Under the pieces are notes generated by a model. It was not told the origin of the DNA, did not search any database, and worked only from the letters and a program-made list of their open reading frames with translations. Below are positions 21,378-50,916 of a DNA stretch of 64,000 bases, piece after piece. Position 1 is the first letter of the stretch. Each line of letters begins with the position of its first letter. Source of the DNA: Candidatus Omnitrophota bacterium (GTDB lineage Bacteria; Omnitrophota; Gorgyraeia; 2-01-FULL-45-10); assembly GCA_016935115.1 (NCBI GenBank), contig JAFGRN010000002.1:3748-67747 (forward strand), in the 5' to 3' direction. A program made the translations under genes and the position numbers.

Positions 21378-21378
21378 G

Positions 21379-24195: not shown

Positions 24196-24208
24196 ACTCG
24201 CTCCGACG

Positions 24209-31494: not shown

Positions 31495-32472
31495 TTATCC
31501 GCCTCCGACAAGAGACTTAAGTTCGCTCACGGAAAGCCATTCACCGTTCGAATCGCTGGAATACCTGAACCCGTCGGGCACGCTCCTGCCGCGCTTGTAC
31601 TTCTTATCCGGATGGTAAAACGCGGGCCGGATTACATAATACCTCCCGAACTCCGTGGTATTACGGGAGTCGTCTTCGGAGATCATCACCTCGTGAAGCT
31701 TCTCGCCCGGCCGGATACCTATAGTCTTCAGGCGGCATCCGGGCGCGATAGCCCTGGCAAGATCCGTTATTGACATGCTAGGAATCTTCGGAACAAATAT
31801 CTCGCCGCCTTCCATGATCTTGAATTTATCGATAACAAACTTCACCGCCTCGTCAAGCGTGATCCAGAAACGTGTCATACGCGGATCCGTTATCGGCAGG
31901 ATGGCGGTCTTCTTCCTGGCAAGAAAGAACTCCACGACTCCGCCGCGGCTTCCCAGCACATTTCCGTACCGGACCACCGAGAACCGCACGCCGCCCTTTC
32001 TGGAATAGAAATTGCCGTCGACAAACAATTTATCTGAACAGAGCTTGGTCGCGCCGTACAGGTTAACGGGATTGCACGCCTTATCACTGCTTAAGGCTAT
32101 AACCTTCTTGACGCCGCATTCGATCGAGGTCTCGATAAGATTCATCGCGCCGATTATATTCGTCTTTATGGCCTCACCGGGGTTGTACTCCATTAGCGGC
32201 ACCTGTTTGAGCGCCGCAGCGTGAACCACATAGTCGACGCCACGGAGCGCCATCCGCAGGCGTTCGCGGTCCCTGACATCTCCTATAAAATACCGCATCA
32301 CTTCTTTATGCGCGGCGAATTGCTCCTGCATCTTGAACTGCTTAAATTCGTCGCGGCTATACACTATCAGTCGCTTCGGCATATGTTGCCGCAGAACAGC
32401 CTGTATAAAACATTTCCCGAATGACCCCGTACCGCCGGTAACCAGTATTACCTTTCCCCTGAATATGCCCAT
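31495..32472 (-). CDS. pseB: UDP-N-acetylglucosamine 4,6-dehydratase (inverting), PseB/FlaA1/CapD family
   Basis: KVILVTGGTGSFGK…FIGDVRD…LYGATK match PseB-type short CapD dehydratases; GGAGA lies upstream of the ATG. Confidence 0.7.
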   Translation of the reverse strand: MGIFRGKVILVTGGTGSFGKCFIQAVLRQHMPKRLIVYSRDEFKQFKMQEQFAAHKEVMRYFIGDVRDRERLRMALRGVDYVVHAAALKQVPLMEYNPGEAIKTNIIGAMNLIETSIECGVKKVIALSSDKACNPVNLYGATKLCSDKLFVDGNFYSRKGGVRFSVVRYGNVLGSRGGVVEFFLARKKTAILPITDPRMTRFWITLDEAVKFVIDKFKIMEGGEIFVPKIPSMSITDLARAIAPGCRLKTIGIRPGEKLHEVMISEDDSRNTTEFGRYYVIRPAFYHPDKKYKRGRSVPDGFRYSSDSNGEWLSVSELKSLVGGG

Positions 32473-34479: not shown

Positions 34480-34495
34480 AGTGTTGTCCCGTATA

Positions 34496-35983: not shown

Positions 35984-37176
35984 CTTAAGGCGCCTTTTTT
36001 ATCGGCTGCCATACCAGAATAGCAGTTCGTCTTCGGGTCGGTTATCGAGCGATATATCGGCATGAAATCGTCATGGTATGGGGACTGTGGATCGAGAAAG
36101 GCATGCAGTCCGATGCTGTCCCTGGAATATATCTTCGACTTCAAAAAACGGTGAAGCGGCATTATCGTCCGGCCGGTGATGCCATTGTTCCTTATAAAAT
36201 CTTTCGCCCGCTTCTTCATTGCCGGAATGCCGCCATTACGCCTATTCCGCGTCGAGATAAAAGCCGTGTTAATATAATCCTTAACGGCATCTCTGGCTAT
36301 CTCTCCGGCCCTCTCCTGTGAAATATTTTCTCTTCCGGCGATCTCTTGCGCAAAACAATCGGCCAGTTTCGTATACTTCTCGGTGGCCATTATCTCCTCG
36401 CTCGATTCATGCTTCGGGACTTCCTCTCCGGTTCCGTAAAGGAGCGCGGATCCCTGGTTATCATGGGCCTCCCGCGCCAGATATAGTTTATTGAGCATGC
36501 CCGACTTACCCTGGATGACAGACAGTCCGCTCAGGGCCAGCTCTCCCACATTAAGGTGAAGATTACGGGAACAACACCACATCAGGTTCCGCTTATATTC
36601 GTCCGTGCGGTGAATTGAGTAGGCGGTTGGCATGCAGTTTCTAAGATGATTTCGCAGCCTTTCGGATGGCTTGCTATCCTGAATAGACCTTTGCCCGTAA
36701 TAACTTATCCACCTGACTGCCGGGCCGTCCGGTGTCATGCCGGCGTTGAAGAGGCACGTCATTCCATGGACAACACTGTAGTCCCTATGCGCATCGAGGA
36801 ATTCGATGCCCTCATTCAGCGTGGACAGGACCATGAAATCATCGTCCGCCCAGAAGACGGTGTATGGCGTCGAGACCTTCTCCAGTCCGGACAATATCCT
36901 GTCCTGGAGAGTTGTTTTCGTATCGAACAGGGTGCGGATCGAGTGGTTTCTCTGCAGCATCGACAGCGGGATGTTCATATCATCCGGGGTGTCGCTGGAA
37001 TCCAGGATATGGACCCTAAAAGGAAACCCTACTGAATCCATGTATGAGATCACCCGCCTCAGCCTGGAATACCTGTTGCGTGTGGGCATCAGCACCGTCA
37101 GCTTATCGGACAATCCGCCGCCGGGGCTATGCATACACATCCTGTGCGGCTTCGCTGTAGAGGATCGTACAGTCAC
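35980..37176 (-). CDS. GT-A-fold (family-2-like) glycosyltransferase, putative
   Basis: LTVLMPTRNRYSRL resembles the GT2 N-terminal strand; a DxD-like ADDD is present. Confidence 0.5.
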   Translation of the reverse strand: MTVRSSTAKPHRMCMHSPGGGLSDKLTVLMPTRNRYSRLRRVISYMDSVGFPFRVHILDSSDTPDDMNIPLSMLQRNHSIRTLFDTKTTLQDRILSGLEKVSTPYTVFWADDDFMVLSTLNEGIEFLDAHRDYSVVHGMTCLFNAGMTPDGPAVRWISYYGQRSIQDSKPSERLRNHLRNCMPTAYSIHRTDEYKRNLMWCCSRNLHLNVGELALSGLSVIQGKSGMLNKLYLAREAHDNQGSALLYGTGEEVPKHESSEEIMATEKYTKLADCFAQEIAGRENISQERAGEIARDAVKDYINTAFISTRNRRNGGIPAMKKRAKDFIRNNGITGRTIMPLHRFLKSKIYSRDSIGLHAFLDPQSPYHDDFMPIYRSITDPKTNCYSGMAADKKGALR

Positions 37177-38092
37177 TGCAGATCTTCATCGACGTCTTCT
37201 TCCCCTTCTCATTTATCGCCCTGATCGCTGTTATCTTTTCGTTATTGAATATCTCTATCGGCGACGCGTCCCTGACATTACCGAGCGAATAGTTCGCATG
37301 GTGCAGGTCCGAACAGCACAACGGCACGGTGCCATCCCAGAGGATCATAAGCCGGTCGTAAACATGATGGCACGGCTTCGCGTCAATGGCCTGGTCTCTC
37401 GCGGCGATCCTATCCTGCGGATCACCGAGCTCGCCTCCCCACGTATGCGCCCCGTAACCGATTATAAGATCCTTCTTCTCCGAGGAGATCCGCGCCTTCC
37501 AGTACGCCCTGAAATCGTCCCACTCGGCCTTGTTGGATTCCTGCCGGATAAAGCGGAATACAAAACGGGTCTTATAATTTCCGGCATCCCTCTTCCTGAT
37601 GATACTTTCGGCATTGGCGACAATGGAGTCAAAATTGACGCCCTTGCGGATATTCTCATGCGTGCTCTTCCTGTAACCGTCGATGCTGAAGATGATCGTA
37701 TCTATGCCGCTCGACAGGAGAGCGTCCTGATGTTTTTCGTTCATAAGGTCCCCATTCGTCGCAATTGCGATACTCTGAAATCCCTCGCGCTTGGCGTACC
37801 TGATCTTTTCGAACAGGGTCTTGTCCAGCAATGGCTCTCCCAGGCCCCAGAGGTCGACCTTTTCGATCTGCGCGGCAAACGGCTTCAGATCGTCAATGAT
37901 TTTCCTGAATAGTTCCATGGACATCACGCCTTTTTTGCGTTTCGTAGGCATGTCGACGGGGCACATCACGCATTTCGCGTTACATCCGAAGACCACCTCT
38001 AATTGTATCCTCTTAGGAATTAAAATATTATTCCGCATCTTGGCCTCTATCTTTACAGGTAAAGCCGGCATTAAGCCTTTTACGTAATTCAT
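37127..38092 (-). CDS. radical SAM enzyme with SPASM/twitch domain
   Basis: GCNAKCVMCPV radical SAM motif and a C-terminal KPCHHV…VPLCCSDLHH region. Confidence 0.7.
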   Translation of the reverse strand: MNYVKGLMPALPVKIEAKMRNNILIPKRIQLEVVFGCNAKCVMCPVDMPTKRKKGVMSMELFRKIIDDLKPFAAQIEKVDLWGLGEPLLDKTLFEKIRYAKREGFQSIAIATNGDLMNEKHQDALLSSGIDTIIFSIDGYRKSTHENIRKGVNFDSIVANAESIIRKRDAGNYKTRFVFRFIRQESNKAEWDDFRAYWKARISSEKKDLIIGYGAHTWGGELGDPQDRIAARDQAIDAKPCHHVYDRLMILWDGTVPLCCSDLHHANYSLGNVRDASPIEIFNNEKITAIRAINEKGKKTSMKICSDCTILYSEAAQDVYA

Positions 38093-39230
38093 TCTTGGGT
38101 TTCTCTATCGCTTCCAGCGTCCTGATCACCTGTCCTCCCCTGTGCGCCAGTATATGGGGAAACCGGCGCAGATAGCCCATCACTTTTTCCACACGTTCGT
38201 CGATCTGCGCGGCGGAATAAAACGGCAGGCCCATCTTCTCTATCCTTGCGTGCTTCACCCGCTCGAAACCGTGCACCGCGACTTCGTCGAAGATCTCCGC
38301 GACGAATTCTACGGAACTTAAGTCTTCCTGCTCGGTTGCGGTCGGATACCCGATGATCAGATCCGTCCGCAGGATCAGGTCCCTGCGCGACACTCGCAGC
38401 TTCTTGAAGTACGGCTTTAATCCGGTGACCACCGGTTTTCTGTCCATCAGGGCAAGCACACGATTACTCGTCGATTGAATAAGGACCTGAAATTCCCTCA
38501 CCTTCTTATCCATAAGCAGCGGCCATAATTCATCACGATAGACGTGGACCCAGTCCGCATTTATCTGGGACAGGTGAATTTGAAAATCAAATTCGCCGAT
38601 TATCTTCTTCAGTAATTCGGGATAAGTCGTCCCGATATCGGTGCCATACGAGCCAGTATCGTTTCCGGCAAGGCATATGGTATGGACCTTCTTCTCGAGG
38701 TTCCTGATCTGGTAAAAGATGCTCTCGGGAGGAACGCTCTTTAGGTTTCCTATGCCCAGCTTATGCGGGCAGAACGGACAGTCGGACGAGCAACCCGTCT
38801 GCAGAAGGATGAACTGTTTCCCGGGATCGTAGAGCCTATGGTCCTCTTTGCCGCGAAACCCCGTAGCTTCTGGGATATCTTTAAGCGGCACCGCAGGATC
38901 CTCTATAAGGGCCTTTACATCCGTCCAGTTGAACGAAGGGATGACGCGGTTCGGAGAGAAGGGCCTGATACGTTTCATATTGATTCCCGGCAGGCATCCA
39001 AAAACCACCAGCTCGGCACCGGACTTCATCCCCGTCCTGGCGGCCTCGATAAAGCCGACAGCCTCGTCTTCAAGGCTTTTGAACGCTCCGCATGTGCCTA
39101 TGATCACGACATCCGCCTCACTCTGGTTCGTCGTGGGAACCATATCATTGGCCATCAGGTAATTGTTTATCCTGTTCAGGATAAGCTTGTACGGAGTGCA
39201 GACATTGTCTTTTATGTAGAACGATCTCAT
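38028..39230 (-). CDS. MiaB/RimO-family methylthiotransferase-like radical SAM enzyme lacking a TRAM domain
   Basis: The N-terminal MTTase domain has three Cys at the spacing seen in MiaB (NVCTPY / IGTCGAF / FGCLPG, about 36 and 32 residues apart), followed by the radical SAM motif GCSSDCPFC. I see no C-terminal TRAM-like segment. The start is set to the second ATG (39230), which removes overlap with the upstream gene. Confidence 0.65.
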   Translation of the reverse strand: MRSFYIKDNVCTPYKLILNRINNYLMANDMVPTTNQSEADVVIIGTCGAFKSLEDEAVGFIEAARTGMKSGAELVVFGCLPGINMKRIRPFSPNRVIPSFNWTDVKALIEDPAVPLKDIPEATGFRGKEDHRLYDPGKQFILLQTGCSSDCPFCPHKLGIGNLKSVPPESIFYQIRNLEKKVHTICLAGNDTGSYGTDIGTTYPELLKKIIGEFDFQIHLSQINADWVHVYRDELWPLLMDKKVREFQVLIQSTSNRVLALMDRKPVVTGLKPYFKKLRVSRRDLILRTDLIIGYPTATEQEDLSSVEFVAEIFDEVAVHGFERVKHARIEKMGLPFYSAAQIDERVEKVMGYLRRFPHILAHRGGQVIRTLEAIEKPKNELRKRLNAGFTCKDRGQDAE

Positions 39231-39246
39231 CTTCCCTTTCTCACTG

Positions 39247-40389
39247 TTAAAGAATATGCGCTTTCGCATTTATGCCCATTCCGCTGAGCGCGCCCTCGAT
39301 CTCTTTTTTATATACGCTGTTCATGACCAGGACGTCAATCTTTCCCGTTGCCTTCCTGAGTACGGCCGGAGGCTCGATGCGCTTCGCGCTTACCGGCAGG
39401 AACCTCCCCTGCTTCTTCTCATTTATATCCACGACGTATTTCACGCGTTTCAGCAACTCGTCATTAAGGGCGCTCAGAAATAACACTCCCTTGCCCGAAG
39501 CGCCCCAGACGCATAGATTCTCCGCAGAGCGGATAAAATCGTCCCGCTCTCTTTTTATGCCCTTAAGGACGTTGCCCAAGTCAATTCCGGAAGCTTCCGG
39601 ACGGCCGCTCATCGCATCTTTGCAAGCCGTCGGGTCGTATACGGCCTCCAGCAGTATATATTCCCCTCCGAAAACATTGCTGATCCGGATATCGCGGAAC
39701 CCCGCCGAAGAGATCAGCGCCGCCAGGCTCTTCCTGCAAAAATAGTTACAGTGCTCATAAGTGATGTCATAAAAGGCCTCTTTCCTGACTATCCATTCGA
39801 GATCCGGCACTTCGACGCAGATCTTCGCTCCCTTTGCCAGAACACTGGGCCTGCATATCTGCTTCAGGAAGAGATACGGCTTATGAAGATGCTCGAGAAC
39901 ATGCCTCAGTATAAGTACATCATATCCGGAATCCGCGGCGGAAGGGCTGAAATATTCCTTCCGGAAAATTACCGATCCCTGAACGCCGTCACCGGTATAT
40001 GCCCTGTCGTAACCGAAACCCCTTGCGTGCGTCCTGTCACATAATTTCTTTAAAAAATCGCCGTTGCCGCATCCGACCTCCAATATTCTCGCGTCCTTCC
40101 GGATGTCTTTGCCGACTTTGGAGGCAAGTTCATCCAGATAATCGCGATAGGCAGGCGAGCTATCCCTGCTATTGTCATAATGCCGGTCATATTCCAGGAT
40201 ATCCGGGTCGAAAGCGCTATTAAAGACCGCGGCGCACTTATCGCAGGCTACCAGCTCGACCTCTCCCACGGGAGCCTTGACAGCCTCGGCCGCCGTCCGA
40301 TAGGTGACGTTGTTCATCGCGGGACAACGTTCCTTTCGGTAGACGACTCTGCGCTCGATCCGTTCACGGCAACATGGGCATTCGATCAT
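39247..40389 (-). CDS. sugar C-methyltransferase-like protein (Zn-ribbon plus class I MTase plus C-terminal domain)
   Basis: N-terminal CPCC…C Zn-ribbon and SAM motif LEVGCGNGDF, with a domain order like TylC3-type C-methyltransferases. Confidence 0.55.
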   Translation of the reverse strand: MIECPCCRERIERRVVYRKERCPAMNNVTYRTAAEAVKAPVGEVELVACDKCAAVFNSAFDPDILEYDRHYDNSRDSSPAYRDYLDELASKVGKDIRKDARILEVGCGNGDFLKKLCDRTHARGFGYDRAYTGDGVQGSVIFRKEYFSPSAADSGYDVLILRHVLEHLHKPYLFLKQICRPSVLAKGAKICVEVPDLEWIVRKEAFYDITYEHCNYFCRKSLAALISSAGFRDIRISNVFGGEYILLEAVYDPTACKDAMSGRPEASGIDLGNVLKGIKRERDDFIRSAENLCVWGASGKGVLFLSALNDELLKRVKYVVDINEKKQGRFLPVSAKRIEPPAVLRKATGKIDVLVMNSVYKKEIEGALSGMGINAKAHIL

Positions 40390-40408
40390 CTGTCCTGAAC
40401 CTCTATAA

Positions 40409-41125
40409 CTATAGTTTTTTTAAAAATCCGTCGGGACAATATGTCGTCTTAAGGCGGTTATAGGTCCTGTCGACTTCCCAGCCGGATCGCCCCCGTAAAA
40501 AGTCCCTTATCGCCCTCATCGGATTATCGTCCTTCCATTCCTTCTTCCCGGTCGGATTGCTTGTCAGCATCTCCTGGATTCCATCCATGACCACCATGTA
40601 ACTGCCCCTGGATACAAAGCGGGAATAGATCTCCAGCTCTTTCAGGACGTGGCCGTACGAATGATTGGAATCCAGTATTACTAGAACTTTATCGCTCTTT
40701 TTTACGCCGTTCTGAACGACCCTGACCGTATCCTCGCTCGTGGAACTGCCCTGGATGAGCTCTATCCTTTTGGATAACGGGTGTTTCCTTATAGCGGCTT
40801 CATTGGGCTTTCGTATATCTATGTCGACCCCGATCACTTTGCCATTGCCCAATAATTCTAGAATCGAGGCGCTAAGCATGAGGGACCCGCCATGGGCCAC
40901 TCCGGTCTCGATAACGACGTCAGGGCGCACTTTCCACAACAGCTCCTGCATCATCACGATATCCGAAGAGAGCTGTATGATCGGGATACCCAGCCATGTC
41001 GGCTCGTAAACGAGCCTGTTATGAAATGACACCCGCTCCCATAACCGGGCCACCAGCGACAGGCCTTCTTCGCTGTATATATCCACCTCTTTCGATTCAT
41101 CCCCGTCAAGAACCCTGATCTTCAT
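40409..41125 (-). CDS. CmcI-family (cephalosporin-hydroxylase-like) methyltransferase
   Basis: …VIETGVAHGGSLMLSA…VIGVDIDIR… is typical of the CmcI/class-I MTase family frequent in heptose-modification loci. Confidence 0.6.
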   Translation of the reverse strand: MKIRVLDGDESKEVDIYSEEGLSLVARLWERVSFHNRLVYEPTWLGIPIIQLSSDIVMMQELLWKVRPDVVIETGVAHGGSLMLSASILELLGNGKVIGVDIDIRKPNEAAIRKHPLSKRIELIQGSSTSEDTVRVVQNGVKKSDKVLVILDSNHSYGHVLKELEIYSRFVSRGSYMVVMDGIQEMLTSNPTGKKEWKDDNPMRAIRDFLRGRSGWEVDRTYNRLKTTYCPDGFLKKL

Positions 41126-42144
41126 TGCTCACTCCCTTGCCTTGGCACGGAACACGACCTGTCACAATCGCTCACATAAATGATCTTGCTCCCCTGCGAC
41201 TCAAAACTGAACGGCGTCTCCCTGAGCCCGGAAAGAGCCCTGCGCACGCCGTCCTGTTTATCCTTTTCACAATAAAACAGGAGGAAGCCGCCTCCTCCAG
41301 CGCCCAGCACCTTGCCCCCCACAGCGCCAGCCTTCAATGCCTTCTCGTAGCTTTCGTCAATCCTGTTATTCGTAATACCGTTGGCGAGCTTCTTTTTGAG
41401 CAGCCACCCTTCGTGTAATATCTCGCCAAAACCGTGCAGGTCGTTCCCCTGAAGCTTCTTCAGCAACTTCTGAGACAACGCCACTATGTCGTTCAGGTGC
41501 GCCATGTTCTGCTTTGTCTTCTCGCCCTGCTCTTTCAATATCGATGACGACACACGCGTGACCCCTGTGTAGAAGAGCATCAATTTGTCGTTAAGAATCT
41601 TTTTCGTCTCCCCCGGAAATATGACCGGGTCGACGAAGACGCTATCGTCACTGTTAAACCTGATATACTGGATCCCCCCGTATGCGGCTATATACTGATC
41701 CTGTTTACCTATGGGGTTCTTCAGTACGTTTATCTCGATCTCGCACGCCTCCCTGGCCAGGCGTTCACCGGAAACATGCTGGCCCTTGAATGCGTATAAA
41801 GCGTTCAGTACGCCTACGGCCAGGCTGCTCGAGGATCCGAGGCCTATGCCCGCGGTTCCCAGAGGGACGTCACCCATGTAGACGACCTCGATACCCCTCT
41901 TGATGCCGGCCAATCGCAACGCCTCGCGGATTATATTGTGCTCCACCTGGTCGACGGTCTCGACAAGCTCAGTCTTCGAATAACTTACCCGGACCAGATC
42001 ATCGAACTTCTGGTTCACCGTTATGTAGATGTATTTATTGATCGCGGCGGAGACAACCGAACCAGGCCTGTTTCTGTAATATTCTGGCAGATCGGAGCCG
42101 CCGCCCGCAAAACTCACTCTCAGTGGTGTCCGTGAAATGATCAT
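41122..42144 (-). CDS. GHMP kinase, D-glycero-D-manno-heptose 7-phosphate kinase-like (HddA-like)
   Basis: PLRVSFAGGGSDLPEYY N-terminus and GHMP motif PLGTAGIGLGSSSSLAV. Confidence 0.7.
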   Translation of the reverse strand: MIISRTPLRVSFAGGGSDLPEYYRNRPGSVVSAAINKYIYITVNQKFDDLVRVSYSKTELVETVDQVEHNIIREALRLAGIKRGIEVVYMGDVPLGTAGIGLGSSSSLAVGVLNALYAFKGQHVSGERLAREACEIEINVLKNPIGKQDQYIAAYGGIQYIRFNSDDSVFVDPVIFPGETKKILNDKLMLFYTGVTRVSSSILKEQGEKTKQNMAHLNDIVALSQKLLKKLQGNDLHGFGEILHEGWLLKKKLANGITNNRIDESYEKALKAGAVGGKVLGAGGGGFLLFYCEKDKQDGVRRALSGLRETPFSFESQGSKIIYVSDCDRSCSVPRQGSEQ

Positions 42145-43034
42145 ACCTTCACCTCCAGGCTCTTAAGATATTGCCTTATTCCCGACTCAATGCCGGTCCT
42201 GGCCCGCCATCCGAAAATTGTGCGCGCCCTGGATGTATCCGCCCAGAAGTCCGCCGTCGCCTTCGTCCTGGCGGCTTCCAGCGCAGCGGCTTGCACCGGC
42301 CGCCTTCCCATGGCTTTCTCCAGTTCCATACAGACTTTCCAGACATTCACCGCGGCGCCGGTCCCGAGATTATACGCGCCCGAAGGTATCTCCTCTTTTA
42401 CGGCCCGCACTATCGCCTCCGATACATCATCCACGTAAATAAAATCGTTCGCGTTCCACGGCGTGCGGATCACGGGTGTTTCGCCTCTCAATAACGCAGA
42501 GGCCATAACCGGAATCAGCGAAGTCTCCTTCTGGCCGGGGCCATAGATGAAAAAACCGCGCAGCCAGATAAACGACGTGCCGTTCTTCGCGGCGAGCGTC
42601 ATACCAAAATCGCACAGAGATCTCTTCGCCCATGCAAAATAGGAATTAACGGGCGCCAGGACATCTTCCCTGCAGGCGCCGTAAGACTGGCCATATTCCC
42701 AGCAGCTTCCCATCGATACGATCTTCCGGCATCCGCACTCCTCGGTCAACAGGCGAAATAGCGCTGTTCCCTGGCCCAGGTTCCTGCGGGACATCTCAAA
42801 ACCGTAATCCGGGATTCCTTCCCACGCAAGGTGAACACAGGCATCCGGACGGAAAGCTTTTAACGCGCCTTCCAGCGAATCCGGCTCATTAAGATCTCCT
42901 TCGATAACGCGGAGCTTTCCGGCGAGTCCGGCCGGCGCCTTACGACAGACGACGGCGATTTCATCCGCGCCGGACAAAGAACGCTGCAGCCTTCTGCCTA
43001 TAAATCCTGTCGCTCCCGTTATAACGATCTTCAT
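42141..43034 (-). CDS. NAD(P)-dependent sugar reductase/epimerase (SDR)
   Basis: MKIVITGATGFIGRRL Rossmann motif; placed after the RmlC-like epimerase, as a 4-reductase would be. Confidence 0.65.
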   Translation of the reverse strand: MKIVITGATGFIGRRLQRSLSGADEIAVVCRKAPAGLAGKLRVIEGDLNEPDSLEGALKAFRPDACVHLAWEGIPDYGFEMSRRNLGQGTALFRLLTEECGCRKIVSMGSCWEYGQSYGACREDVLAPVNSYFAWAKRSLCDFGMTLAAKNGTSFIWLRGFFIYGPGQKETSLIPVMASALLRGETPVIRTPWNANDFIYVDDVSEAIVRAVKEEIPSGAYNLGTGAAVNVWKVCMELEKAMGRRPVQAAALEAARTKATADFWADTSRARTIFGWRARTGIESGIRQYLKSLEVKV

Positions 43035-43050
43035 GATATCCTCGCCGGAG

Positions 43051-43614
43051 TCAAACGGTCACCGCGCCTTCTTTTGCCAGATAATCCTTAAATGACGGCG
43101 CGGCCAGGTCCTTATCCGAAATGATAAGCGGCCCATTGATCGGCCATGAAATATTCAGGTCCGGATCCTTCCAGTGTATCGTCCGGGAACTCTCCCGGTG
43201 GTACGGCGTATCCATCTTATACAGAAGGGAGCAATCGTCCGTCAAGGTATACATTCCCATGGCCATCCCCTTGGGCGCGTACAGAAGTTCCGGGGCCTCT
43301 ATCGAAAGCTCGACGCTATCCCATAGGCCGAACGTCGGCGAACCCGCGCGCATATCTACAAGAACCATAAAGGCCCTGCCCTGCGCCACCCGAACAAGTT
43401 TCGTTTCAGTATAAGGTGAGCATTGAAAATGCAGCCCCCTCAAAGTACCTCTCTTCTTTGAAAAAGAGTGAGTTTCCTGGATCCACCGCGTCACAAGGCC
43501 ATATCCGGCAAGAATATCCCGGTCATAGGTGCGGGCCAGGAACCCCCTGTCGTCTCGGTGCGGGGCGAGCGTGATCCGGAACGCGCCATCTATCTTTAAA
43601 GGAATAAGTTCCAT
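43051..43614 (-). CDS. cupin sugar-nucleotide 3,5-epimerase (RmlC-like)
   Basis: 187 aa; …RDDRGFLARTY…GTLRGLHFQ… matches the RmlC fold motifs. Confidence 0.7.
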   Translation of the reverse strand: MELIPLKIDGAFRITLAPHRDDRGFLARTYDRDILAGYGLVTRWIQETHSFSKKRGTLRGLHFQCSPYTETKLVRVAQGRAFMVLVDMRAGSPTFGLWDSVELSIEAPELLYAPKGMAMGMYTLTDDCSLLYKMDTPYHRESSRTIHWKDPDLNISWPINGPLIISDKDLAAPSFKDYLAKEGAVTV

Positions 43615-43618
43615 AGCT

Positions 43619-44884
43619 TCATAGCTCCCGCGCCATCAACTGCGGAGCCGAAATTACCCGCGGCGCTTTCGGAAACGGCACTATATATTGCCCCCTGAAT
43701 CCGCGCCTGGCGCATTCGTCCATGATCTCCCCGGCAAAATTCCACGCCAGTATAAAGATCACATCCGGCCTGAATGCCAGGCCTTCTTCAAACGACACAA
43801 TCGGCAGATCGCCGGCAGGAGTCATGCATCCCTGCTTGAGAGGATTATTGTCGATGATGGCTCTGAGATAGTTGGGCCCGATGCCGCAAAAATTGATAAA
43901 CGTGGCACTGCGCGCCGAAGCGCCAAAACCCACGATCACCTTCCCGCTCAGGGACTTGAGCAGATCCAGCATCTTTTCGCGATGGTCTATGGCATAGCCG
44001 GCAAATTTTTCCCAGGCCGCGAACTTATTGATCCCGGACCTTTTTTCAGCGCATAAGAGCTCTCCGTATTCCGGTTGCTGCGGACGTTTTGTCTTGGAAA
44101 AGTACAACACGATCGACCCGCCGCTAATGGGACTCTCATCTACGGCAAAGGGGTACAGCCCGTAACGTTCAAGAAGGTTTCCGAGGGAATGCGCCGTAAA
44201 ATAGCACAGGTGCTCATGATAGATGGAATCGTAATGAAGATCCCTCGCTATGACGGCTCCGCTGTGAAATTCGATCACGCCGGTACCGTCATCGGAGAGA
44301 GCGCTGGCGATACCTTCGGTCACGCCGTGAAGGTCGCTCACATGCGGAATGACATTCCGCGCTATTATCGTTTTCGGCCTGCCGTACCGGGCGACCGCCG
44401 TTTTCGCCGAAGAGGCATCCCAATACGAACAGTCCGTGGGAACTCCGTTGCGAACGGCCATCTCGGCTATATTTCTCGCCGGCTCTATTCCGAGGACTTT
44501 CATCCCGCGGGCCGCGAACTGCCTGAGGACCGTGCCGTCGTTCGAGGCTATCTCAAAGACCATATCCCCGCGGCGCAGGCCGGAGCGATCGATGACCCGG
44601 CCTGAAAATATGCCCGCATATTCCTGCGCGCATTTTGAAGTACCGGTGACCCACACGTACCGATCGAAAAGGACCTCTTTACGCAGTGTTTCTCTGAGCT
44701 GGAAAAGAGAGCATTCCGGGCAGAAGGCCGTAGAGAGAGGAAATTTTTCAATTCTGCCGGCGGCGGGGCGCACCAACGCGTTGGCAAGCGGCTGTTCACC
44801 CAGATTAAGGACATCTTTCAGCCCCTTATATCCGCAAATCCGGCAGGCTGTAATCGTTTCAAATATTTTTGACATTGGAGCCAT
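43619..44884 (-). CDS. sugar C-methyltransferase (TylC3/NovU-like family)
   Basis: N-terminal Zn-ribbon CRICGYK…CPEC, a class I MTase core and a C-terminal dinucleotide-binding-like domain; 421 aa is typical of the family. Confidence 0.6.
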   Translation of the reverse strand: MAPMSKIFETITACRICGYKGLKDVLNLGEQPLANALVRPAAGRIEKFPLSTAFCPECSLFQLRETLRKEVLFDRYVWVTGTSKCAQEYAGIFSGRVIDRSGLRRGDMVFEIASNDGTVLRQFAARGMKVLGIEPARNIAEMAVRNGVPTDCSYWDASSAKTAVARYGRPKTIIARNVIPHVSDLHGVTEGIASALSDDGTGVIEFHSGAVIARDLHYDSIYHEHLCYFTAHSLGNLLERYGLYPFAVDESPISGGSIVLYFSKTKRPQQPEYGELLCAEKRSGINKFAAWEKFAGYAIDHREKMLDLLKSLSGKVIVGFGASARSATFINFCGIGPNYLRAIIDNNPLKQGCMTPAGDLPIVSFEEGLAFRPDVIFILAWNFAGEIMDECARRGFRGQYIVPFPKAPRVISAPQLMAREL

Positions 44885-44891
44885 AATTGTC

Positions 44892-45926
44892 CTATCGGAA
44901 CAGGCGAAGGTCCCCTGAAACCTTTTTATTGTCCTGCAGATACCTGATCTGCTTTAGCCTGGCGCAGGTACGCCCGCGAAAATGATCCTCATTGAACCCC
45001 GTCTTCCTGAAAAACCCGATGAGTTCTTTCCCTCCGCTATCGAGGTCCCATTCGGGCCTGAAATAGTCTTTAAGCACGGAGAGGATCTTTTTAAAACTGA
45101 CCTGATATGTGCGGGAATCATTTCCGTGCTCGCCGGTGAAGACTAGGGAGCTTCCGGAAACCGAACGCTGCGCAGCTTCGGCGAGTTCACGCACCGTAAA
45201 GTTGCCTCCCGGGATACCGACATTGAACGCCTGGCCGGAGACGAGTGACAGCGGCGCTTCGAGCCCGGCTATATAGGCGCTCGAGACATCACGCACATGG
45301 ACCACCGGCCGCCATGGCGACCCGTCGCTCTTTATCTCGATCCTGCCCGTAGCGTAAGCGCATCCGACCAGATTATTGTAAACGATATCGCACCTGAGGC
45401 GGGGGCTCGCGCCGAATACCGTCGACGGGCGGAAGGAGACGACATGAAAATTCTTATCGGCCAATTTCTTAAGGGCGCATTCCGCTTCCCATTTTGTGCG
45501 GGCATAGGCCGTCAGCGGATGCTTCTTGCTGTTGTCCTCATCGAGCTCGCAATCGACGGCCGAAACTCCGTACATGCTCTGCGATGAGGAATAGATAAAC
45601 CTTTTCACTCCCGCGCTCTTCGCGGCCAGCGCGGCCTTCACGGTCCCGCCCAGGTTGATCTCTTCCGTCAATCCTGGGGCAAACTCGCCAAGCGGATCGT
45701 TGGATAGCGCGGCCAGATGAATCACCGCGTCGACCCCCTCCATATCCTCCGTCGTGATGTCGCGGATATCTTTCCTTATCTGCCGTATGGCCGGATTGTA
45801 CGGATGCAGAAGGCAATCCGCATAGTACCCGATATCATACCCGACCACTTCATATTTCCTGTCGAGCAGCATATCGACCAGGACGCTGCCGATATACCCC
45901 TGATTGCCCGTAACCAGTACTTTCAT
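44892..45926 (-). CDS. NAD-dependent nucleotide-sugar dehydratase/epimerase (SDR)
   Basis: MKVLVTGNQGYIGSVL and YARTK catalytic motif. Confidence 0.65.
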   Translation of the reverse strand: MKVLVTGNQGYIGSVLVDMLLDRKYEVVGYDIGYYADCLLHPYNPAIRQIRKDIRDITTEDMEGVDAVIHLAALSNDPLGEFAPGLTEEINLGGTVKAALAAKSAGVKRFIYSSSQSMYGVSAVDCELDEDNSKKHPLTAYARTKWEAECALKKLADKNFHVVSFRPSTVFGASPRLRCDIVYNNLVGCAYATGRIEIKSDGSPWRPVVHVRDVSSAYIAGLEAPLSLVSGQAFNVGIPGGNFTVRELAEAAQRSVSGSSLVFTGEHGNDSRTYQVSFKKILSVLKDYFRPEWDLDSGGKELIGFFRKTGFNEDHFRGRTCARLKQIRYLQDNKKVSGDLRLFR

Positions 45927-45927
45927 A

Positions 45928-46476
45928 TCACGCCTTTACTTTCTCCAGCTCATACGCAAGGCTATCGACTACCGACGACAGCCAGGATTGATGGACGGCT
46001 TCTATGATATTGTACTCGTCACTGTCGGTCCACAAATTGAGGTCTCCGAGCCGCCTCAATGGATTATCCGGCCTGAACCCCGAGAGAGTGATCACCTTAA
46101 GGCCCATCGATCTGGCCTGCCGGGCGGCATTCACGATGTTGGGCGACTTACCGCTGCTGCTGATCAGGATCACCAGGTCCCCGGCGCAGGCATAGGCTTT
46201 CAGCGCCTCTTCGACCCAATGCTCATAACCGTAGTCGTTGGAAAAACATGTGATCAGGTCCGCGTCGTTAAAACTGATCGCGCGGACACCCGCCGTCTTT
46301 GTAAGGTCCACCGATACATGGCTCGCGATCGCAGCGCTGGCGCCATTGCCTGCGATCATGACCTTGCCGCCGAGTGATGACGCCTCTCGCACAAGCGCCG
46401 CGCCCTTCTCTATGGCGTCGTCATCGACATCGAGAATTGCCCGGCATATCCTCTGCAGATAATCTCTGATCTTCAT
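45928..46476 (-). CDS. gmhA: SIS-domain sedoheptulose-7-phosphate isomerase (GmhA-like)
   Basis: SIS motifs (…GGKVMIAGNGASAAIASH…DLVILISSSGKSPN…). The ATG at 46476 (MKIRD…) forms an ATGA overlap with the upstream stop and is preceded by GGGAGG; the track's longer N-terminus is rejected. Confidence 0.7.
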   Translation of the reverse strand: MKIRDYLQRICRAILDVDDDAIEKGAALVREASSLGGKVMIAGNGASAAIASHVSVDLTKTAGVRAISFNDADLITCFSNDYGYEHWVEEALKAYACAGDLVILISSSGKSPNIVNAARQARSMGLKVITLSGFRPDNPLRRLGDLNLWTDSDEYNIIEAVHQSWLSSVVDSLAYELEKVKA

Positions 46477-47231
46477 TCTCCGCCCTCCCGTCTTAAGCAC
46501 GCGAATCCCTTCTCCCGGGACGCCTTTTCGAACCGGATAAGATCCCCGGGGGATGTGATGAAGTAATATTGTTCGTCAGAAACGAACGCTCCCAGCCGCC
46601 CGTCTGCGGCCAGGCGCGCCAGTATCTTCTCCTCAAAAGAGATATTGCCCTCCTCCGCCCTGTCGAGAACCTTCCTGTCTACCAGGAAAAATCCGATATC
46701 GATCCCGTTCAACCCTTCCATGCGCCGGTTCTTATCGTATGCCACGACCTTTCCGCGGTGATCCACGGCAACATTATTCCCGGAGCCATACTCGCCCGTA
46801 CCCTGTTTATTGCTGAACACCGTTGTCGTCACGGGAACCCCGATCCGCTCATAATTGAAGATCATCTTGTCCAGCGGAATCGTCCAATAATTGTCGCCAT
46901 AGAGTAACAGAAACCGGTCTTCGAGCTTTTCGTAAGCGTCCAGAAGCCGCCTGCCGGTCAGGTCATCTTCTGTCCCGACCGAATAGTCTATCCGCAGCCC
47001 GAATTCTCTGCCGTCACCATAGTAGCCCATGATCGCGTCTGCGCGATAACCTACCAGAAAGAGAATCCTACGGATGCCGGAGTTGACGAGCGACCGCATC
47101 AGATAGTCCGTAAACGGCCTCCCATTCACCGGCACCATCGGCTTCGGAATGCCATCCGTGATGGGCCTGAGGCGTTCACCGCGGCCACCCGCGAATATGA
47201 CTGCCTGCTGGATTGTCATTTGTTTATGCAT
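46473..47231 (-). CDS. sugar-1-phosphate nucleotidyltransferase (HddC/GMP-like)
   Basis: AVIFAGGRGERLRPITDGIPKPMVPV nucleotidyltransferase signature; first gene after a promoter/operator. Confidence 0.65.
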   Translation of the reverse strand: MHKQMTIQQAVIFAGGRGERLRPITDGIPKPMVPVNGRPFTDYLMRSLVNSGIRRILFLVGYRADAIMGYYGDGREFGLRIDYSVGTEDDLTGRRLLDAYEKLEDRFLLLYGDNYWTIPLDKMIFNYERIGVPVTTTVFSNKQGTGEYGSGNNVAVDHRGKVVAYDKNRRMEGLNGIDIGFFLVDRKVLDRAEEGNISFEEKILARLAADGRLGAFVSDEQYYFITSPGDLIRFEKASREKGFACLRREGGE

Positions 47232-47259: not shown

Positions 47260-47307
47260 TTTAAAACGTTCTAAACGAATATTATCATACTACCCTATCT
47301 GTGTCAA
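47260..47307 (-). promoter_or_regulatory. second copy of the promoter/operator module: TTGACA, 17-nt spacer, TAATAT -10, then the same 16-bp palindrome TTTAAAACGTTCTAAA
   Basis: On the minus strand, TTGACA corresponds to 47307-47302, the 17-nt spacer to 47301-47285, TAATAT to 47284-47279 and the operator to 47275-47260. The 16-mer is identical to that at 33008-33023. Confidence 0.6.
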
Positions 47308-47365: not shown

Positions 47366-49381
47366 TTAAATAGCCACCCATTTCGGCCAAAAGTCTCTGA
47401 TACTGCCATCCCTGTACAACATCTGGAGCGAAAGTATGGCATCCTTATTAGCGTACATAAATTCTTTTGCCTTTTTCTTTATGTCACGCTCAAAAATAAC
47501 CCTGTATGAAGACACCCTATAAAAATCTTTCAATAGCAGTGAAGTGTTGAGATTTGCCAGCCATACAGGTATATCGTAATTGAGGCATATTTCTCTTTCG
47601 CTCAAGAGGTTTCCACCGGCAAAGACGGCCTTTACATCCCTTGTCAATAAATACTGTTTCATGTCCGCGAGAATCAGATCTACCCCCTCTTTCATATCAA
47701 TCGCGTTCAATAGCTTTTTGGCCTCGGACAATGCCAGATCAAGCACCGACCTGTAGCTATGGAATAGGACGAGTTGTTTATACTTTCTCAGCAGATTATC
47801 GCCATATTTACCTTCGCAAAGCGCCTTCCAGTTTTCGGGTTCGTCAAAAAATTCCAGGAGCGCCTCTCTCGTAGGAAATAACTCCGCTTTTGTCTCCCGG
47901 ACGAATTCCTGATAGTAAATGTTTATGTCGGAAAATTCGGACAATCTGCGATGAATATCGAAGACCCAGTCCGCCATATCGATGCCATTTTCAATCAAAA
48001 GCCTTTTGAGAGGAATCAGTTCTATTGAAGAGCAGAAAACGGATATTGTAAAGCATAGGCGGCGAAGCTCGATATAATCATCGAATGACATCGTATTGGT
48101 CCCGATGATAACTTCCTCTGTATCAAGTATCTTCTTCCCGTCGATGACACTGAACTGCCGCGGCACCACCCTGTGGCGGATCACATAGCCGTACTTGCGG
48201 GCATTCTCCTCAGACGAAAGCGGCGTCCCCTTAAGCGCCATCAGAGTGTATATGCAAATGTTTTGCACGCCCGATCTTATGACCTTTCTTATTGTTTCGA
48301 GAAAGCTATCCTTGGTCTCCCCCGGAAGGCACAGGATCAATTCGGTTTCGGATGCTTCGCCGGTTTTCCTCAAAATCTCATGCTGAAACGAGATGAAATC
48401 CTCGAACGGGATATTTGTCCTGTTAATATTTTTTAATACTTCCGGCGTCAGTGTCTGTAACGCGATACCCGGATTAAATCGGATGATCGAGGACATCTCC
48501 ACCAGCTTCTTCGGATCCTTTCCGGAATTGAAGTTCATATTCCTGGGCCAGTCGTATTTTTTCTGTGTATCGCGGATTATCCCGGCGATCACGAAGTCCT
48601 CTTTGAAGAGGCTCATGTTAGTATTGGCCAGGTATAACATCACTTCATGTTTCCCGGAGAAGCGCCTGCCGAGATATTCCATATCCCGCCTGAAAATATC
48701 CGGGGAGAGAAAGAGCATGCGCGAGTAATATCTGTCGCTCGTATGGCAAAAGGCGCATGTGAAGGGACAGCCGCGATGGGTCTGTAAAAAAGGATGGGAT
48801 CCGCTGTCGAGAAATTCATCAAAAATCCCATCGGCATAAAGAGATCCCAGGGCATCCAGGGAATTAAGGCGCGGAGGCGGCTCCGGTGAGTCCACTATGT
48901 CGCCGCGGGAAGCATCGTAAGAATACGTACCGGGCCCCGGTTTCCTGCGGATATCGCCGGGCTTCTCCCCTTTCAAAAGGCGCTTCACGGTCTCGGTGAA
49001 TGGAATCTCGCCATCATATGAAACACAAAGATCAATAAAGGCATATTTTTTGAAAAAATTTCTGCGGCCGGATTTAAGCAGGTCGAGATTAGGCCCCCCG
49101 GCTATGACAAGACACCCCGGATCGGCGTCTTTAATCCGCGCGGCTACATGCAGGTTAAGCTCACTGTTCCATGAGTATTGGGCTATACCCAGCACATCGG
49201 GACGCCAGGACTTAAAAGCCTTCAGGGCCTTATCAGTATCTTTGAAAAGCCTGGTATTTACGCTATTCCCCACTGCTTTGTCCAGATATCGCGCGATCGC
49301 CCCCAACCCCAACGGCACTGTGTTGGTGTGTATGCCCCGCGTCGTATGGTTTAAGTCCAACAAAGCTATTTTCATTCCCAT
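47366..49381 (-). CDS. large (671 aa) cobalamin-binding radical SAM enzyme
   Basis: THRGCPFTCAFC and a B12-binding-like N-terminus; third member of the 675-aa paralogue group. Confidence 0.8.
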   Translation of the reverse strand: MGMKIALLDLNHTTRGIHTNTVPLGLGAIARYLDKAVGNSVNTRLFKDTDKALKAFKSWRPDVLGIAQYSWNSELNLHVAARIKDADPGCLVIAGGPNLDLLKSGRRNFFKKYAFIDLCVSYDGEIPFTETVKRLLKGEKPGDIRRKPGPGTYSYDASRGDIVDSPEPPPRLNSLDALGSLYADGIFDEFLDSGSHPFLQTHRGCPFTCAFCHTSDRYYSRMLFLSPDIFRRDMEYLGRRFSGKHEVMLYLANTNMSLFKEDFVIAGIIRDTQKKYDWPRNMNFNSGKDPKKLVEMSSIIRFNPGIALQTLTPEVLKNINRTNIPFEDFISFQHEILRKTGEASETELILCLPGETKDSFLETIRKVIRSGVQNICIYTLMALKGTPLSSEENARKYGYVIRHRVVPRQFSVIDGKKILDTEEVIIGTNTMSFDDYIELRRLCFTISVFCSSIELIPLKRLLIENGIDMADWVFDIHRRLSEFSDINIYYQEFVRETKAELFPTREALLEFFDEPENWKALCEGKYGDNLLRKYKQLVLFHSYRSVLDLALSEAKKLLNAIDMKEGVDLILADMKQYLLTRDVKAVFAGGNLLSEREICLNYDIPVWLANLNTSLLLKDFYRVSSYRVIFERDIKKKAKEFMYANKDAILSLQMLYRDGSIRDFWPKWVAI

Positions 49382-50916
49382 TAGTCCGCCTTAGCGTAAT
49401 CCAGCCGCGGCATTAATTCCACCGCGAGATTCTTTAATATCTTAACGTCGTATATCTGCGTCCAGTGGCGACGATCTTCGGGCAATGACCAGATGTAGCC
49501 ATTTATATCCTCCGCCCGGAGCCTGAACAACCTGCCCTTTTCCGAATCGTATACGTTTATATATGCGTCTACCTTCTCTCCGATGCGGTACTTCCTGTCG
49601 GTCAGGTGACCGCCGGCATATTCAAAGCGCTTATTGAGGGCGCTCGTCACTATCGGCCGATGGAAGAGCAGTCTGTATACACACATCGGAACCCATCCTT
49701 CGGATAAGAACTCTATATTACTCACAGGCCCGTACTTACTGTATTGATTACCGGAGAAATATAAGGTCCTATCCTCTTTATACTCCCGCAGGGCATCATT
49801 ATCCTTCATCGTCAGGATCACTTTTTGCTGATGCAAGCTCCAGCGCTTCCAATGGTCGGAGATCCCGAAGATGGCAAAGATAAGAATAATGCATACCGCG
49901 GCCTTGAGCTTCTTCGGCAGAGGAATTGATATTAAGAGATATGTAACCAATAATGATCCGAAGATCGTCACCCTGTTACCCAGGCCGAAACAGACCTGCG
50001 GATACCGGCCGGTGAACGCGTACATGAGAAAAGATAGAGCCGTCAACATAACCAGGCAGGCGCCCAGCCGCGAATTATAAACGACATTACAGCGCGTTAT
50101 CACCCTATAGCAGACAACCGAAATTATTAAACATAATATGACCGACTGCGCGGACAGCTGGGAAAAAGCGTAGTATACCTTGAGCCACATCGACGGGCCC
50201 AGCGCGGCGTCGGTGAACGTCAATACTTGCAGCGCGTACTGTTTGATGATGCCGGAAACGCTGACCGCCTCAAGAATCCTGGGATGCCCCGCGCTCCGTA
50301 TGGCCGTTAAATAGATGAAGTAAGAGGCATATATTATGTTGGGGACTATGATAACCGCGGCTTTCTTAAAATTTTTGCCGAGGCAGAAGAGCGCAAAGAG
50401 CGCTACAGCTATGGGCGTACTGCCGTATGATATAAATGAGGCCGCAAGCGCCGACAGGAACGCGAAGAAAAGCTTATCGCGATGCGCCAGATAGAAGGCG
50501 TAGAGATACAGGGCAAATGACAGGGTGAGATACTGGTTCATGAACATATACACAGTGGAATCGTGCGAAGGGAAGAATACAAATATGAAAGATGCCAGGA
50601 CGGCGAGCGATTCGTCCATATAGATCCTAAGGAACTGCGCTATCATGTACAGCGCCAGGATGATATAGGCGATCTTTACCGCGTTCACGGCGGCCGCATT
50701 ATCAAAGCTGAAGAAGTAATACGGGAGGTAGTGGCTGTAATACATCACCGGCGTGTCCGCGTAATAGGGACTGTTTACGGGTATCAGTATATTTTTGAGG
50801 CCCGTGATCTTCGAGCTTGTGACGGCATCGAAGTCGTCGGAGAATAGCCCCGTGTTTATGACAAGATAGGCCGTCAATATGAAGAACAACAGATACATCA
50901 GCTGTATTTTTTTCAT
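49381..50916 (-). CDS. polytopic membrane protein, putative GT-C-fold glycosyltransferase or polymerase
   Basis: About 10-12 predicted hydrophobic helices, an acidic SDDFD motif after the first helix (resembling the GT-C first-loop motif), and a soluble C-terminal domain of about 130 aa. Confidence 0.45.
   Translation of the reverse strand: MKKIQLMYLLFFILTAYLVINTGLFSDDFDAVTSSKITGLKNILIPVNSPYYADTPVMYYSHYLPYYFFSFDNAAAVNAVKIAYIILALYMIAQFLRIYMDESLAVLASFIFVFFPSHDSTVYMFMNQYLTLSFALYLYAFYLAHRDKLFFAFLSALAASFISYGSTPIAVALFALFCLGKNFKKAAVIIVPNIIYASYFIYLTAIRSAGHPRILEAVSVSGIIKQYALQVLTFTDAALGPSMWLKVYYAFSQLSAQSVILCLIISVVCYRVITRCNVVYNSRLGACLVMLTALSFLMYAFTGRYPQVCFGLGNRVTIFGSLLVTYLLISIPLPKKLKAAVCIILIFAIFGISDHWKRWSLHQQKVILTMKDNDALREYKEDRTLYFSGNQYSKYGPVSNIEFLSEGWVPMCVYRLLFHRPIVTSALNKRFEYAGGHLTDRKYRIGEKVDAYINVYDSEKGRLFRLRAEDINGYIWSLPEDRRHWTQIYDVKILKNLAVELMPRLDYAKAD

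Follow-up and report, generated by a model that had tools for sequence, protein, structure and literature searches.

A conserved nine-gene cassette in an Omnitrophota glycan island, predicted to make a C-methyl-branched, O-methylated nucleotide heptose

Here we report the analysis of a nine-gene array at positions 39247-47231 of a 64,000-nucleotide stretch of DNA from Candidatus Omnitrophota bacterium (contig JAFGRN010000002.1, assembly GCA_016935115.1; hereafter the window). We consider it probable that the nine genes, listed below in the order of their transcription, form one cassette for a nucleotide-activated, C-methyl-branched and O-methylated heptose that keeps its 6-hydroxyl. This reading draws on gene presence, family assignments, active-site motifs, synteny, natural gene fusions, and the mutual exclusion of two enzyme variants, SDR1 and a Gmd-like dehydratase. 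The same gene set recurs in the 26 non-redundant related loci from other genomes and metagenomes that served as the comparison set, and its grouping is far beyond chance. We take the cassette to be a widespread and uncharacterised variant of nucleotide-heptose tailoring, predicted to proceed by way of a 4-keto intermediate.

46473..47231, minus strand: sugar-1-phosphate nucleotidyltransferase, HddC-like (Pfam NTP_transferase), predicted to form nucleoside diphosphate (NDP)-heptose from heptose-1-phosphate and a nucleoside triphosphate
45928..46476, minus strand: SIS-domain, GmhA-like ketose-phosphate isomerase (SIS_2, 65.5 bits), predicted to convert sedoheptulose-7-phosphate into aldoheptose-7-phosphate
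44892..45926, minus strand: SDR1, an extended short-chain dehydrogenase/reductase (SDR) by Pfam, with 6vo6 as its best PDB match; predicted NDP-heptose C4-dehydrogenase
43619..44884, minus strand: C-methyltransferase (C-MT) of the TylC3/TcaB9/MtmC type, S-adenosylmethionine (SAM)-dependent and predicted to act on an NDP-4-keto-sugar (Methyltransf_13, 23 and 14; N-terminal Zn ribbon)
43051..43614, minus strand: RmlC-like cupin (PF00908, dTDP_sugar_isom, 185 bits), predicted 4-keto-sugar 3- and/or 5-epimerase
42141..43034, minus strand: SDR2, an atypical extended SDR (Pfam Epimerase; best PDB matches MoeE5 and TunA), presumed C4-ketoreductase
41122..42144, minus strand: GHMP kinase, HddA/WcbL-like (GHMP N and C domains), predicted to convert heptose-7-phosphate into heptose-1,7-bisphosphate
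40409..41125, minus strand: enzyme of the CmcI / rhamnosyl-O-methyltransferase family (PF04989, RMNT_CmcI, 233.5 bits against a cut-off of 23.2), predicted sugar O-methyltransferase
39247..40389, minus strand: MT2, a divergent second enzyme with the sugar C-methyltransferase fold (Methyltransf_23; Zn ribbon, Rossmann and C-terminal domains)
47279..47307, minus strand: sigma-70-like promoter match (TTGACA, 17 nucleotides, TAATAT, with a TG) from a consensus scan, whose rules may differ from those of Omnitrophota promoters

In the proposed pathway, the SIS isomerase would turn sedoheptulose-7-phosphate into aldoheptose-7-phosphate, the GHMP kinase would add a phosphate at C1, a GmhB-type phosphatase encoded outside the window would remove the 7-phosphate, and the nucleotidyltransferase would form the NDP-heptose, guanosine diphosphate (GDP) being assumed as the nucleotide by analogy only. 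SDR1 would oxidise C4 without dehydration, in the manner of Cj1427, to yield a 4-keto intermediate with no 6-deoxygenation. The TylC3-type C-MT would methylate an enolisable alpha-carbon, taken by analogy to be C3, the RmlC-like cupin would epimerise the other alpha-carbon, MT2 may add another methyl group, SDR2 would act on the 4-keto group, and the CmcI-family enzyme would O-methylate the sugar. Homology, motifs, synteny and fusions are the basis for predicting every substrate, as well as which nucleotide is used, which positions are methylated, what stereochemistry results and in which order the late steps follow. A 4-keto sugar is required by both the C-MT family (TylC3/TcaB9) and the RmlC family, and the central gene order SDR1, C-MT, RmlC, SDR2 fits the sequence oxidise, methylate, epimerise, reduce, as in the TylC3/TylK/TylC2 pathway of mycarose.

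A preliminary description of this DNA had read the nine open reading frames (ORFs) as a heptose module in which both SDRs resembled enzymes of 6-deoxy-heptose tailoring. Its outline stands and its assignment of those two enzymes, the SDRs, does not. The nine ORFs are found where it placed them, all on the minus strand, with intergenic spacing of 1-19 bp or overlaps of 4 bp (46473-46476, 42141-42144 and 41122-41125). The promoter-like match falls within the 134 bp that separate the nucleotidyltransferase gene, the first of the cassette, from its upstream neighbour. No terminator-like site was seen on the coding strand where MT2 ends; the downstream MiaB-like gene (38028-39269) overlaps MT2 by 23 bp, and the transcript probably runs past MT2 to about position 33109. 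Base composition shows no anomaly across the cassette. Pfam recovers all of the predicted domains among the nine ORFs, in agreement with the domain predictions of the preliminary description, with the Methyltransf_14 match of MT2 only marginal. None of the nine passes an NCBIfam equivalog cut-off, the nearest being the rmlC model (TIGR01221) at 151.9 against 155.75 bits, and the nine proteins are therefore divergent members of their families.

The cassette is more general than the preliminary description could see. Its carriers, represented by metagenome-assembled genomes, include Omnitrophota, Planctomycetota, Verrucomicrobiota, Nitrospirota, Desulfobacter, Gammaproteobacteria, Saccharibacteria and other lineages of the Candidate Phyla Radiation (CPR), as well as Woesearchaeota and Thermoplasmata. 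An interleaved gene order, with the isomerase gene upstream and the kinase gene downstream of the tailoring genes, is kept across phyla, and in the compact locus L092 all nine functions together with GmhB are packed within 10 kb, with two fusions. No protein of the cassette is better conserved than SDR1 (56-82% identity across phyla), whose gene adjoins that of C-MT in most orthologue loci; when loci were sampled from the SDR1 side, C-MT lay in the same cassette in all three and was directly adjacent in two. The heptose genes vanish from the loci below about 41% C-MT identity. In environmental data, at least 7,970 of the 8,000 scored candidates match SDR1 below E 1e-20, and the best 120 matches are all at least 67% identical.

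The relationships of SDR1 point to dehydrogenation. Its best PDB match, 6vo6, which is presumably the GDP-heptose C4-dehydrogenase Cj1427 of Campylobacter jejuni, scores 116 bits (33% identity over 312 amino acids) compared with 79 bits for the runner-up structure, and identity to Gmd and RfbB is 27% over partial stretches. At the catalytic motif, SDR1 reads YSSSQSMYG and the 6vo6 sequence YPNTNSGYG, aligned with ASTSELYG in E. coli Gmd and ISTDEVYG in E. coli RfbB; in SDR1, S-Q-S thus takes the place of T-S-E (Gmd) and T-D-E (RfbB), and both the dehydratase Asp/Glu and the NHExPRR motif are lacking. The S-Y-K triad is present (YARTK in SDR1, YGIDK in the 6vo6 sequence), and a stretch FRxxTVFGxSPRxRxD is common to the two proteins. 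Seven loci (L010, L012, L014, L015, L021, L024, and L032) carry a C-MT of the same clade without an SDR1 orthologue, and in all seven a Gmd-like enzyme is encoded directly upstream of C-MT. Six of these enzymes have GSGEEYG and NHEGPRR, and that of L021 has SSVAMYG and NIEGPRR. The two variants are mutually exclusive among the loci. Dehydrogenase and dehydratase routes are both known in Campylobacter; the window has the dehydrogenase variant, and its product therefore probably retains O6.

C-methylation is assigned in the first place to C-MT, a protein of 421 amino acids in which PF08421, PF13489, and PF08484 all pass their cut-offs, as the preliminary description had led one to expect. Its closest solved relatives are MtmC (4rv9, E 1e-66) and TcaB9/KijD1 (about 1e-54), and its Tyr76, His181, Tyr222, Glu224, and His225 carry the same numbers as catalytic TcaB9 residues in PDB mutant titles, which is a match of numbering and not of alignment. 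By analogy with these enzymes, C-MT is predicted to methylate C3. The second C-methyltransferase claimed for the locus, MT2, is upheld at the level of the fold, with marginal sequence evidence: it has no PF08421 match, scores 23.2 bits against a cut-off of 23.5 for PF08484, is 21% identical to the C-MT of the cassette, and has no Tyr at the position of Tyr222. An AlphaFold2 (AF2) model of MT2 (predicted local distance difference test, pLDDT, 92.7) yields full-length Foldseek matches to MtmC, TcaB9, and KijD1 only (template-modelling, TM, scores 0.78-0.81, E 1e-22 to 1e-19), and the next matches fall to TM 0.35. An alignment of 41 homologues shows no variation at Y211-E212-H213 and almost none at Cys4, Cys7, Cys49, and Cys52. 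The public gene call for MT2 (P0121, 356 amino acids) starts 24 codons after the ATG at 40389 and loses half of the Zn ribbon (Cys4 and Cys7). A natural SDR2::MT2 fusion (P0364, 667 amino acids; L092 7485-9488) was found on four contigs that represent more than one sample, and MT2 therefore belongs to the pathway together with C-MT. Its methylation site is possibly C5, the enolisable carbon other than C3, which is the one that all solved relatives methylate. The CmcI-like enzyme is also confirmed by its PF04989 score; it reaches 84 bits against a cut-off of 400 with the rhamnosyl O-methyltransferase equivalog, and its gene lies inside the cassette in 14 of the 26 related loci.

For the activation genes, a heptose reading most likely holds, judging from sequence comparison, since each enzyme of the trio is closest to heptose-pathway enzymes and structures; this part of the preliminary description, a nucleotide-heptose activation trio, is sustained. 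The best PDB matches of the kinase are 3k85, WcbL (4usk/4usm), and 4n3o, with E 4e-44 to 4e-31, and the next family, fucokinase, follows at 1e-17. All of the best matches of the isomerase are GmhA (E 7e-19), and it shares 37% identity over 123 amino acids with E. coli GmhA. Yersinia HddC (6jq8/5xhw) heads the list for the nucleotidyltransferase at E 1e-18 and 70 bits only, with other nucleotidyltransferases at 60-66 bits. These genes are not housekeeping copies for lipopolysaccharide, because the kinase is of the GHMP/HddA type and not of the HldE type. The longest isomerase ORF opens at GTG 46500; we prefer a start at ATG 46476 because the N-termini of orthologues align to the Met at that position. 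In other loci, split transketolase-like or E1-dehydrogenase-like thiamine diphosphate (ThDP) genes are found beside the cassette (L001 871-2657; L003 1763-3456 and 15408-16337; L089 15259-16173). Such ThDP enzymes could supply sedoheptulose-7-phosphate or add a two-carbon branch. An HldE-like bifunctional gene is found in L003 (3453-4949), and the window cassette has neither kind of gene.

The RmlC-like epimerase assigned earlier is likewise supported. In addition to the PF00908 match, its His, Lys, Tyr, and Asp align with those of E. coli RfbC in the motifs GLHFQ, DKLVR, QYKT, and SPKD.

Several points weigh against the proposed pathway. The activation enzymes all stay below their NCBIfam equivalog cut-offs: the kinase scores 143.5 bits with its top match, HddA (NF049969; cut-off 600), the isomerase 82 bits with TIGR00441 (cut-off 209), and the nucleotidyltransferase 88.5 bits with HddC (NF049965; cut-off 300). 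The window has no GmhB, as the preliminary description had noted; no HAD family turns up when the main ORFs of 150 amino acids or more are scanned with Pfam, and tblastn with E. coli GmhB yields only matches with E > 0.6. GmhB is also absent from the closest relatives (L001-L008, L013, L088, and L089). In favour of the heptose reading, however, a GmhB homologue does lie inside the cassette in 15 of the 26 related loci (E 1e-20 to 1e-33 against the E. coli protein), and fusions of the nucleotidyltransferase to a GmhB-like HAD phosphatase, 395-398 amino acids long, occur at L090 9023-10219 and L092 4397-5584; an orthologue in L093 is fused in the same way. The epimerase, whose best PDB matches are RmlCs acting on deoxythymidine diphosphate (dTDP)-sugars (E 4e-42), is closer to these than to any GDP-sugar epimerase in the PDB list; together with C-MT it resembles dTDP-sugar enzymes more than GDP-sugar enzymes, and the nucleotide could therefore be other than GDP. 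SDR1 shares only its 33% identity with 6vo6, and the presumed identity of 6vo6 as Cj1427 goes no further than the name given by the depositor. Finally, SDR2 and the isomerase have altered active sites, which bear on the first two of the alternatives considered below.

Reduction by SDR2 is the weakest step of the proposed pathway. The preliminary description had likened this protein to the C4-reductase MlghC, a comparison that fails: SDR2 is 22% identical to E. coli GDP-fucose synthase (GFS, Fcl) over 184 residues, compared with 38-44% for MlghC and DdahC (PMC7949155), and it has Phe in place of the catalytic Tyr. The FxxxK form is found in 18 of 18 aligned cassette copies, and across 151 sequences (150 cluster representatives, P0361-P0510, and the window copy) the Tyr column holds Phe in 137 and Tyr in three. 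The Lys is invariant, and a G-[ST]-C-[WF]-E-Y motif (S-C-x-E) next to the catalytic Ser is nearly so, in a clade with 354 cluster representatives below E 1e-30. In GFS and its relatives MlghC and DdahC, Tyr136 is the general acid of 4-keto reduction (PMC7949155); SDR2 is without this canonical Tyr, and its role as a reductase is therefore uncertain. SDR2 might instead use its conserved Glu and Cys for epimerisation or isomerisation, or assist MT2 in a role without redox chemistry, and we regard either possibility as unlikely. Reduction would then fall to the MtmC-like C-MT, or the sugar would be transferred as a 4-ulose; this too we hold unlikely, and it is compatible with the main explanation, of which it alters late steps only. 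MtmC, the best structural relative of C-MT, is a bifunctional methyltransferase/ketoreductase. However, SDR2 keeps the Rossmann motif, the Arg/Lys after beta-2 and the standard NDP-sugar SDR fold, and as the last of the four central genes it fits a terminal reduction; some SDR-fold reductases that lack the Tyr are known. Its AF2 model (pLDDT 96.9) shows the generic fold and does not discriminate, with epimerases, dehydratases, reductases, and a heptose 6-epimerase all matching at about E 1e-20. We keep C4-ketoreductase as the working role of SDR2 because of its position in the cassette and its fusion partner.

The isomerase has D-E-S in place of the GmhA catalytic E-Q-H (E. coli Glu65, Gln172, and His180). 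Asp for Glu65 and Glu for Gln172 occur in all 12 aligned cassette isomerases, and His180 is kept in three of the 12, its column holding Ser, Leu, Val, or His. The cassette enzymes, with this Asp/Glu pair, appear to form a distinct GmhA-like subfamily. In GmhA the triad is important and E-to-Q mutants are inactive (PMC4697000), so that the substrate of the isomerase or the stereochemistry of its product may differ. The product might not be a manno-heptose at all: the divergent isomerase might act on another ketose phosphate or give another C2 configuration, and the kinase, phosphatase, and nucleotidyltransferase would then activate, by the same logic, a different aldose, for instance an octose or a heptose of the gluco or altro type. 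Antibiotic pathways are known to contain GmhA homologues whose stereochemical outcome is different, and split transketolase-like genes adjoin the cassette in L001 and L003. We find this quite unlikely, as the isomerase keeps the phosphate- and sugar-binding residues Ser55, His61, Asp94, Ser119, Ser121, and Ser124, and the kinase, phosphatase, and nucleotidyltransferase are all closest to heptose-specific enzymes.

The preliminary description had taken SDR1 for a 4,6-dehydratase of the DmhA/Gmd type, so that the product would be a C- and/or O-methylated 6-deoxy-heptose. Weak matches of SDR1 to PF16363 (GDP_Man_Dehyd) and to dTDP-glucose dehydratase lean that way. In addition, all of the SDR1-less loci listed above except L021 combine a Gmd-like dehydratase with the same C-MT (44-49% identical) and with heptose genes, those for activation being present in most. 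In these sister loci, the variant-B loci, the Gmd-like 4,6-dehydratase replaces SDR1 and predicts a 6-deoxy counterpart of the product, and 6-deoxy chemistry therefore exists in the wider family. For the window itself we judge it very unlikely, and the earlier assignment is not retained: the S-Q-S motif and the missing NHExPRR stand against it, the closest solved relative of SDR1 is 6vo6, and no annotated heptose 4,6-dehydratase is found among its best 60 PDB matches. The only Gmd-like gene of the window (14906-15904) is 29 kb away, amid the genes around the nonulosonic-acid synthases. In L003, L088, and L089, extra SDR genes come after the CmcI gene; these were considered as hidden dehydratases and rejected: none resembles Gmd, and the window cassette has no equivalent of them. 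That the tailoring genes act on a hexose nucleotide from elsewhere in the 64-kb island and merely adjoin the heptose genes is hardly credible, for even with a nearly canonical dTDP RmlC (151.9 against 155.75 bits) and several other sugar pathways encoded in the island, the interleaved gene order recurs across phyla, the 10-kb version in L092 joins functions by two fusions, and the cassette encodes neither an RmlA/RmlB-type pair nor anything else that would provide such a pathway with a 4-keto sugar.

The favoured reading, a C-methyl-branched heptose that retains its 6-hydroxyl, has its nearest parallel in the GDP-D-glycero-heptose pathway of the C. jejuni capsule, which comprises GmhA/Cj1424, HddA/Cj1425, HddC/Cj1423, the C4-dehydrogenase Cj1427, the C3/C5-epimerase Cj1430, and the C4-reductase Cj1428. 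C. jejuni capsule loci lack gmhB and borrow GmhB from the lipooligosaccharide (LOS) cluster, and Cj1427 holds a tightly bound NADH that is recycled by alpha-ketoglutarate in a ping-pong mechanism (PMC10680097). Both systems have, or in the case of the window are predicted to have, the isomerase, the GHMP kinase, GmhB acting in trans, the nucleotidyltransferase, non-dehydrating C4 oxidation, a cupin epimerase, and an SDR that acts at C4. Unlike the C. jejuni pathway, the window cassette adds a canonical and a divergent C-methyltransferase and a CmcI-family methyltransferase; its SDR1 is 33% identical to 6vo6, its epimerase is nearer to dTDP RmlCs, its isomerase triad is altered, and its SDR2, which is without the Tyr of the GFS-like reductases, is not related to them.

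With the actinomycete pathways of TylC3, TcaB9, KijD1, and MtmC (for L-mycarose TylC3, TylK, and TylC2) the cassette shares predicted SAM-dependent C-methylation beside a 4-keto group, RmlC-type epimerisation, and reduction. The enzymes of those pathways act on dTDP-2,6-dideoxyhexoses that a 4,6-dehydratase has made and belong to antibiotic clusters, whereas the substrate predicted for the window cassette is a fully hydroxylated heptose nucleotide made by a dehydrogenase, and its setting is a cell-surface glycan island. Routes to GDP-6-deoxy-3-C-methyl-hexoses, such as virenose in Coxiella burnetii, also derive a C-methyl-branched sugar of a surface polysaccharide from a 4-keto nucleotide sugar. 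The virenose route differs in that it leads to a hexose through a 4-keto sugar made by Gmd, with no SIS, GHMP, or GmhB enzymes, and the window route is predicted to lead to a heptose. Our full-text literature searches found no paper linking heptose biosynthesis to sugar C-methyltransferases and none describing a C-methyl heptose or this cassette.

A more far-reaching interpretation, which we offer tentatively, is that a widespread pathway to an O-methylated D-glycero-heptose that is also doubly C-methylated is seen here for the first time, in bacteria (including CPR), in DPANN archaea (Woesearchaeota), and in Thermoplasmata. It would possibly use three atypical catalysts, namely the GmhA-like isomerase with its Asp-Glu pair, the Tyr-less SDR with FxxxK and S-C-x-E, and MT2, which is sometimes fused to SDR2.

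The entire window is a single co-directional glycan island on the minus strand. It encodes two NeuB nonulosonic-acid synthases, PseB-like and PseG-like proteins, two cytidylyltransferases, two sets of WbuX with HisH-like and HisF-like proteins, aminotransferases, acyltransferases, and one carbamoyltransferase (27119-28867). The nonulosonic-acid genes (10049-11155, 24835-25881, 28864-32472, 4507-7077, and 20208-24832, with a third cytidine monophosphate-type gene at 7074-7784, all minus strand) apparently serve two nonulosonic-acid pathways with acetamidino-type modification. Three large ORFs on the same strand, 1125-3059, 17352-19220, and 49381-50916 (644, 622, and 511 amino acids), match no Pfam family, with one weak match to a PFTS-motif polysaccharide-biosynthesis protein; it is possible that they are novel transferases or polymerases.

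The island is also rich in radical SAM genes: nine B12-binding (3063-4451, 11759-13813, 15901-17355, 22168-24195, 33109-34629, 34496-35983, 47366-49381, 50934-52505, and 53298-55898), two SPASM (19150-20211 and 37127-38092), and one MiaB/RimO-like, all on the minus strand. So many of these genes together suggest that the island sugars undergo extensive methylation or other tailoring by radical chemistry. The gene at 53298-55898 is fused to a DUF2334 domain, and the listed ORFs 33109-34629 and 34496-35983 share 134 bp, a later start codon being probable for the downstream gene. The MiaB/RimO-family homologue, encoded at 38028-39269 on the minus strand (TIGR00089, 131 bits, below the cut-off), has an odd setting in a glycan operon, for a family known from the modification of transfer RNA and ribosomal proteins. 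The KedN5-like B12-binding radical SAM C-methyltransferase gene at 47366-49381 lies just upstream of the cassette. Its homologues, about 30% identical, occur in L055, L060, L065, L069, L072, L073, and L078, within a few kb of genes for TylC3-like C-MT homologues, in loci of Acidobacteria, Heliomicrobium, Gemmatimonadota, and Planctomycetota that are without heptose genes.

The preliminary description had counted radical SAM enzymes as members of the module, a view that was not borne out. They belong to the same probable transcription unit, but as candidates for the cassette core, together with the neighbouring glycosyltransferase, they were rejected, being not conserved with the cassette elsewhere. 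None of the 26 related loci has a homologue of the MiaB-like gene nearby, four have a homologue of the SPASM gene, and near related cassettes the TIGR04440 glycosyltransferase and the B12-binding radical SAM genes have no more than scattered matches, at 24-27% identity.

Heptose tailoring is, to our knowledge, known almost only from pathogens of Campylobacter, Yersinia, and Burkholderia, and the known tailoring includes epimerisation, deoxygenation, and O-methylation. By joining a heptose route to C-methylation of the TylC3 type, the cassette predicts branched surface sugars of a new class; it is abundant in environmental metagenomes and occurs in lineages without cultured members. Because the predicted steps use soluble enzymes and available substrates, they are testable by reconstitution of the kind established for C. 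jejuni. The cassette also draws attention to two enzyme clades whose active sites are non-canonical, namely the SDR without the Tyr and the GmhA-like isomerase with Asp and Glu in its triad.

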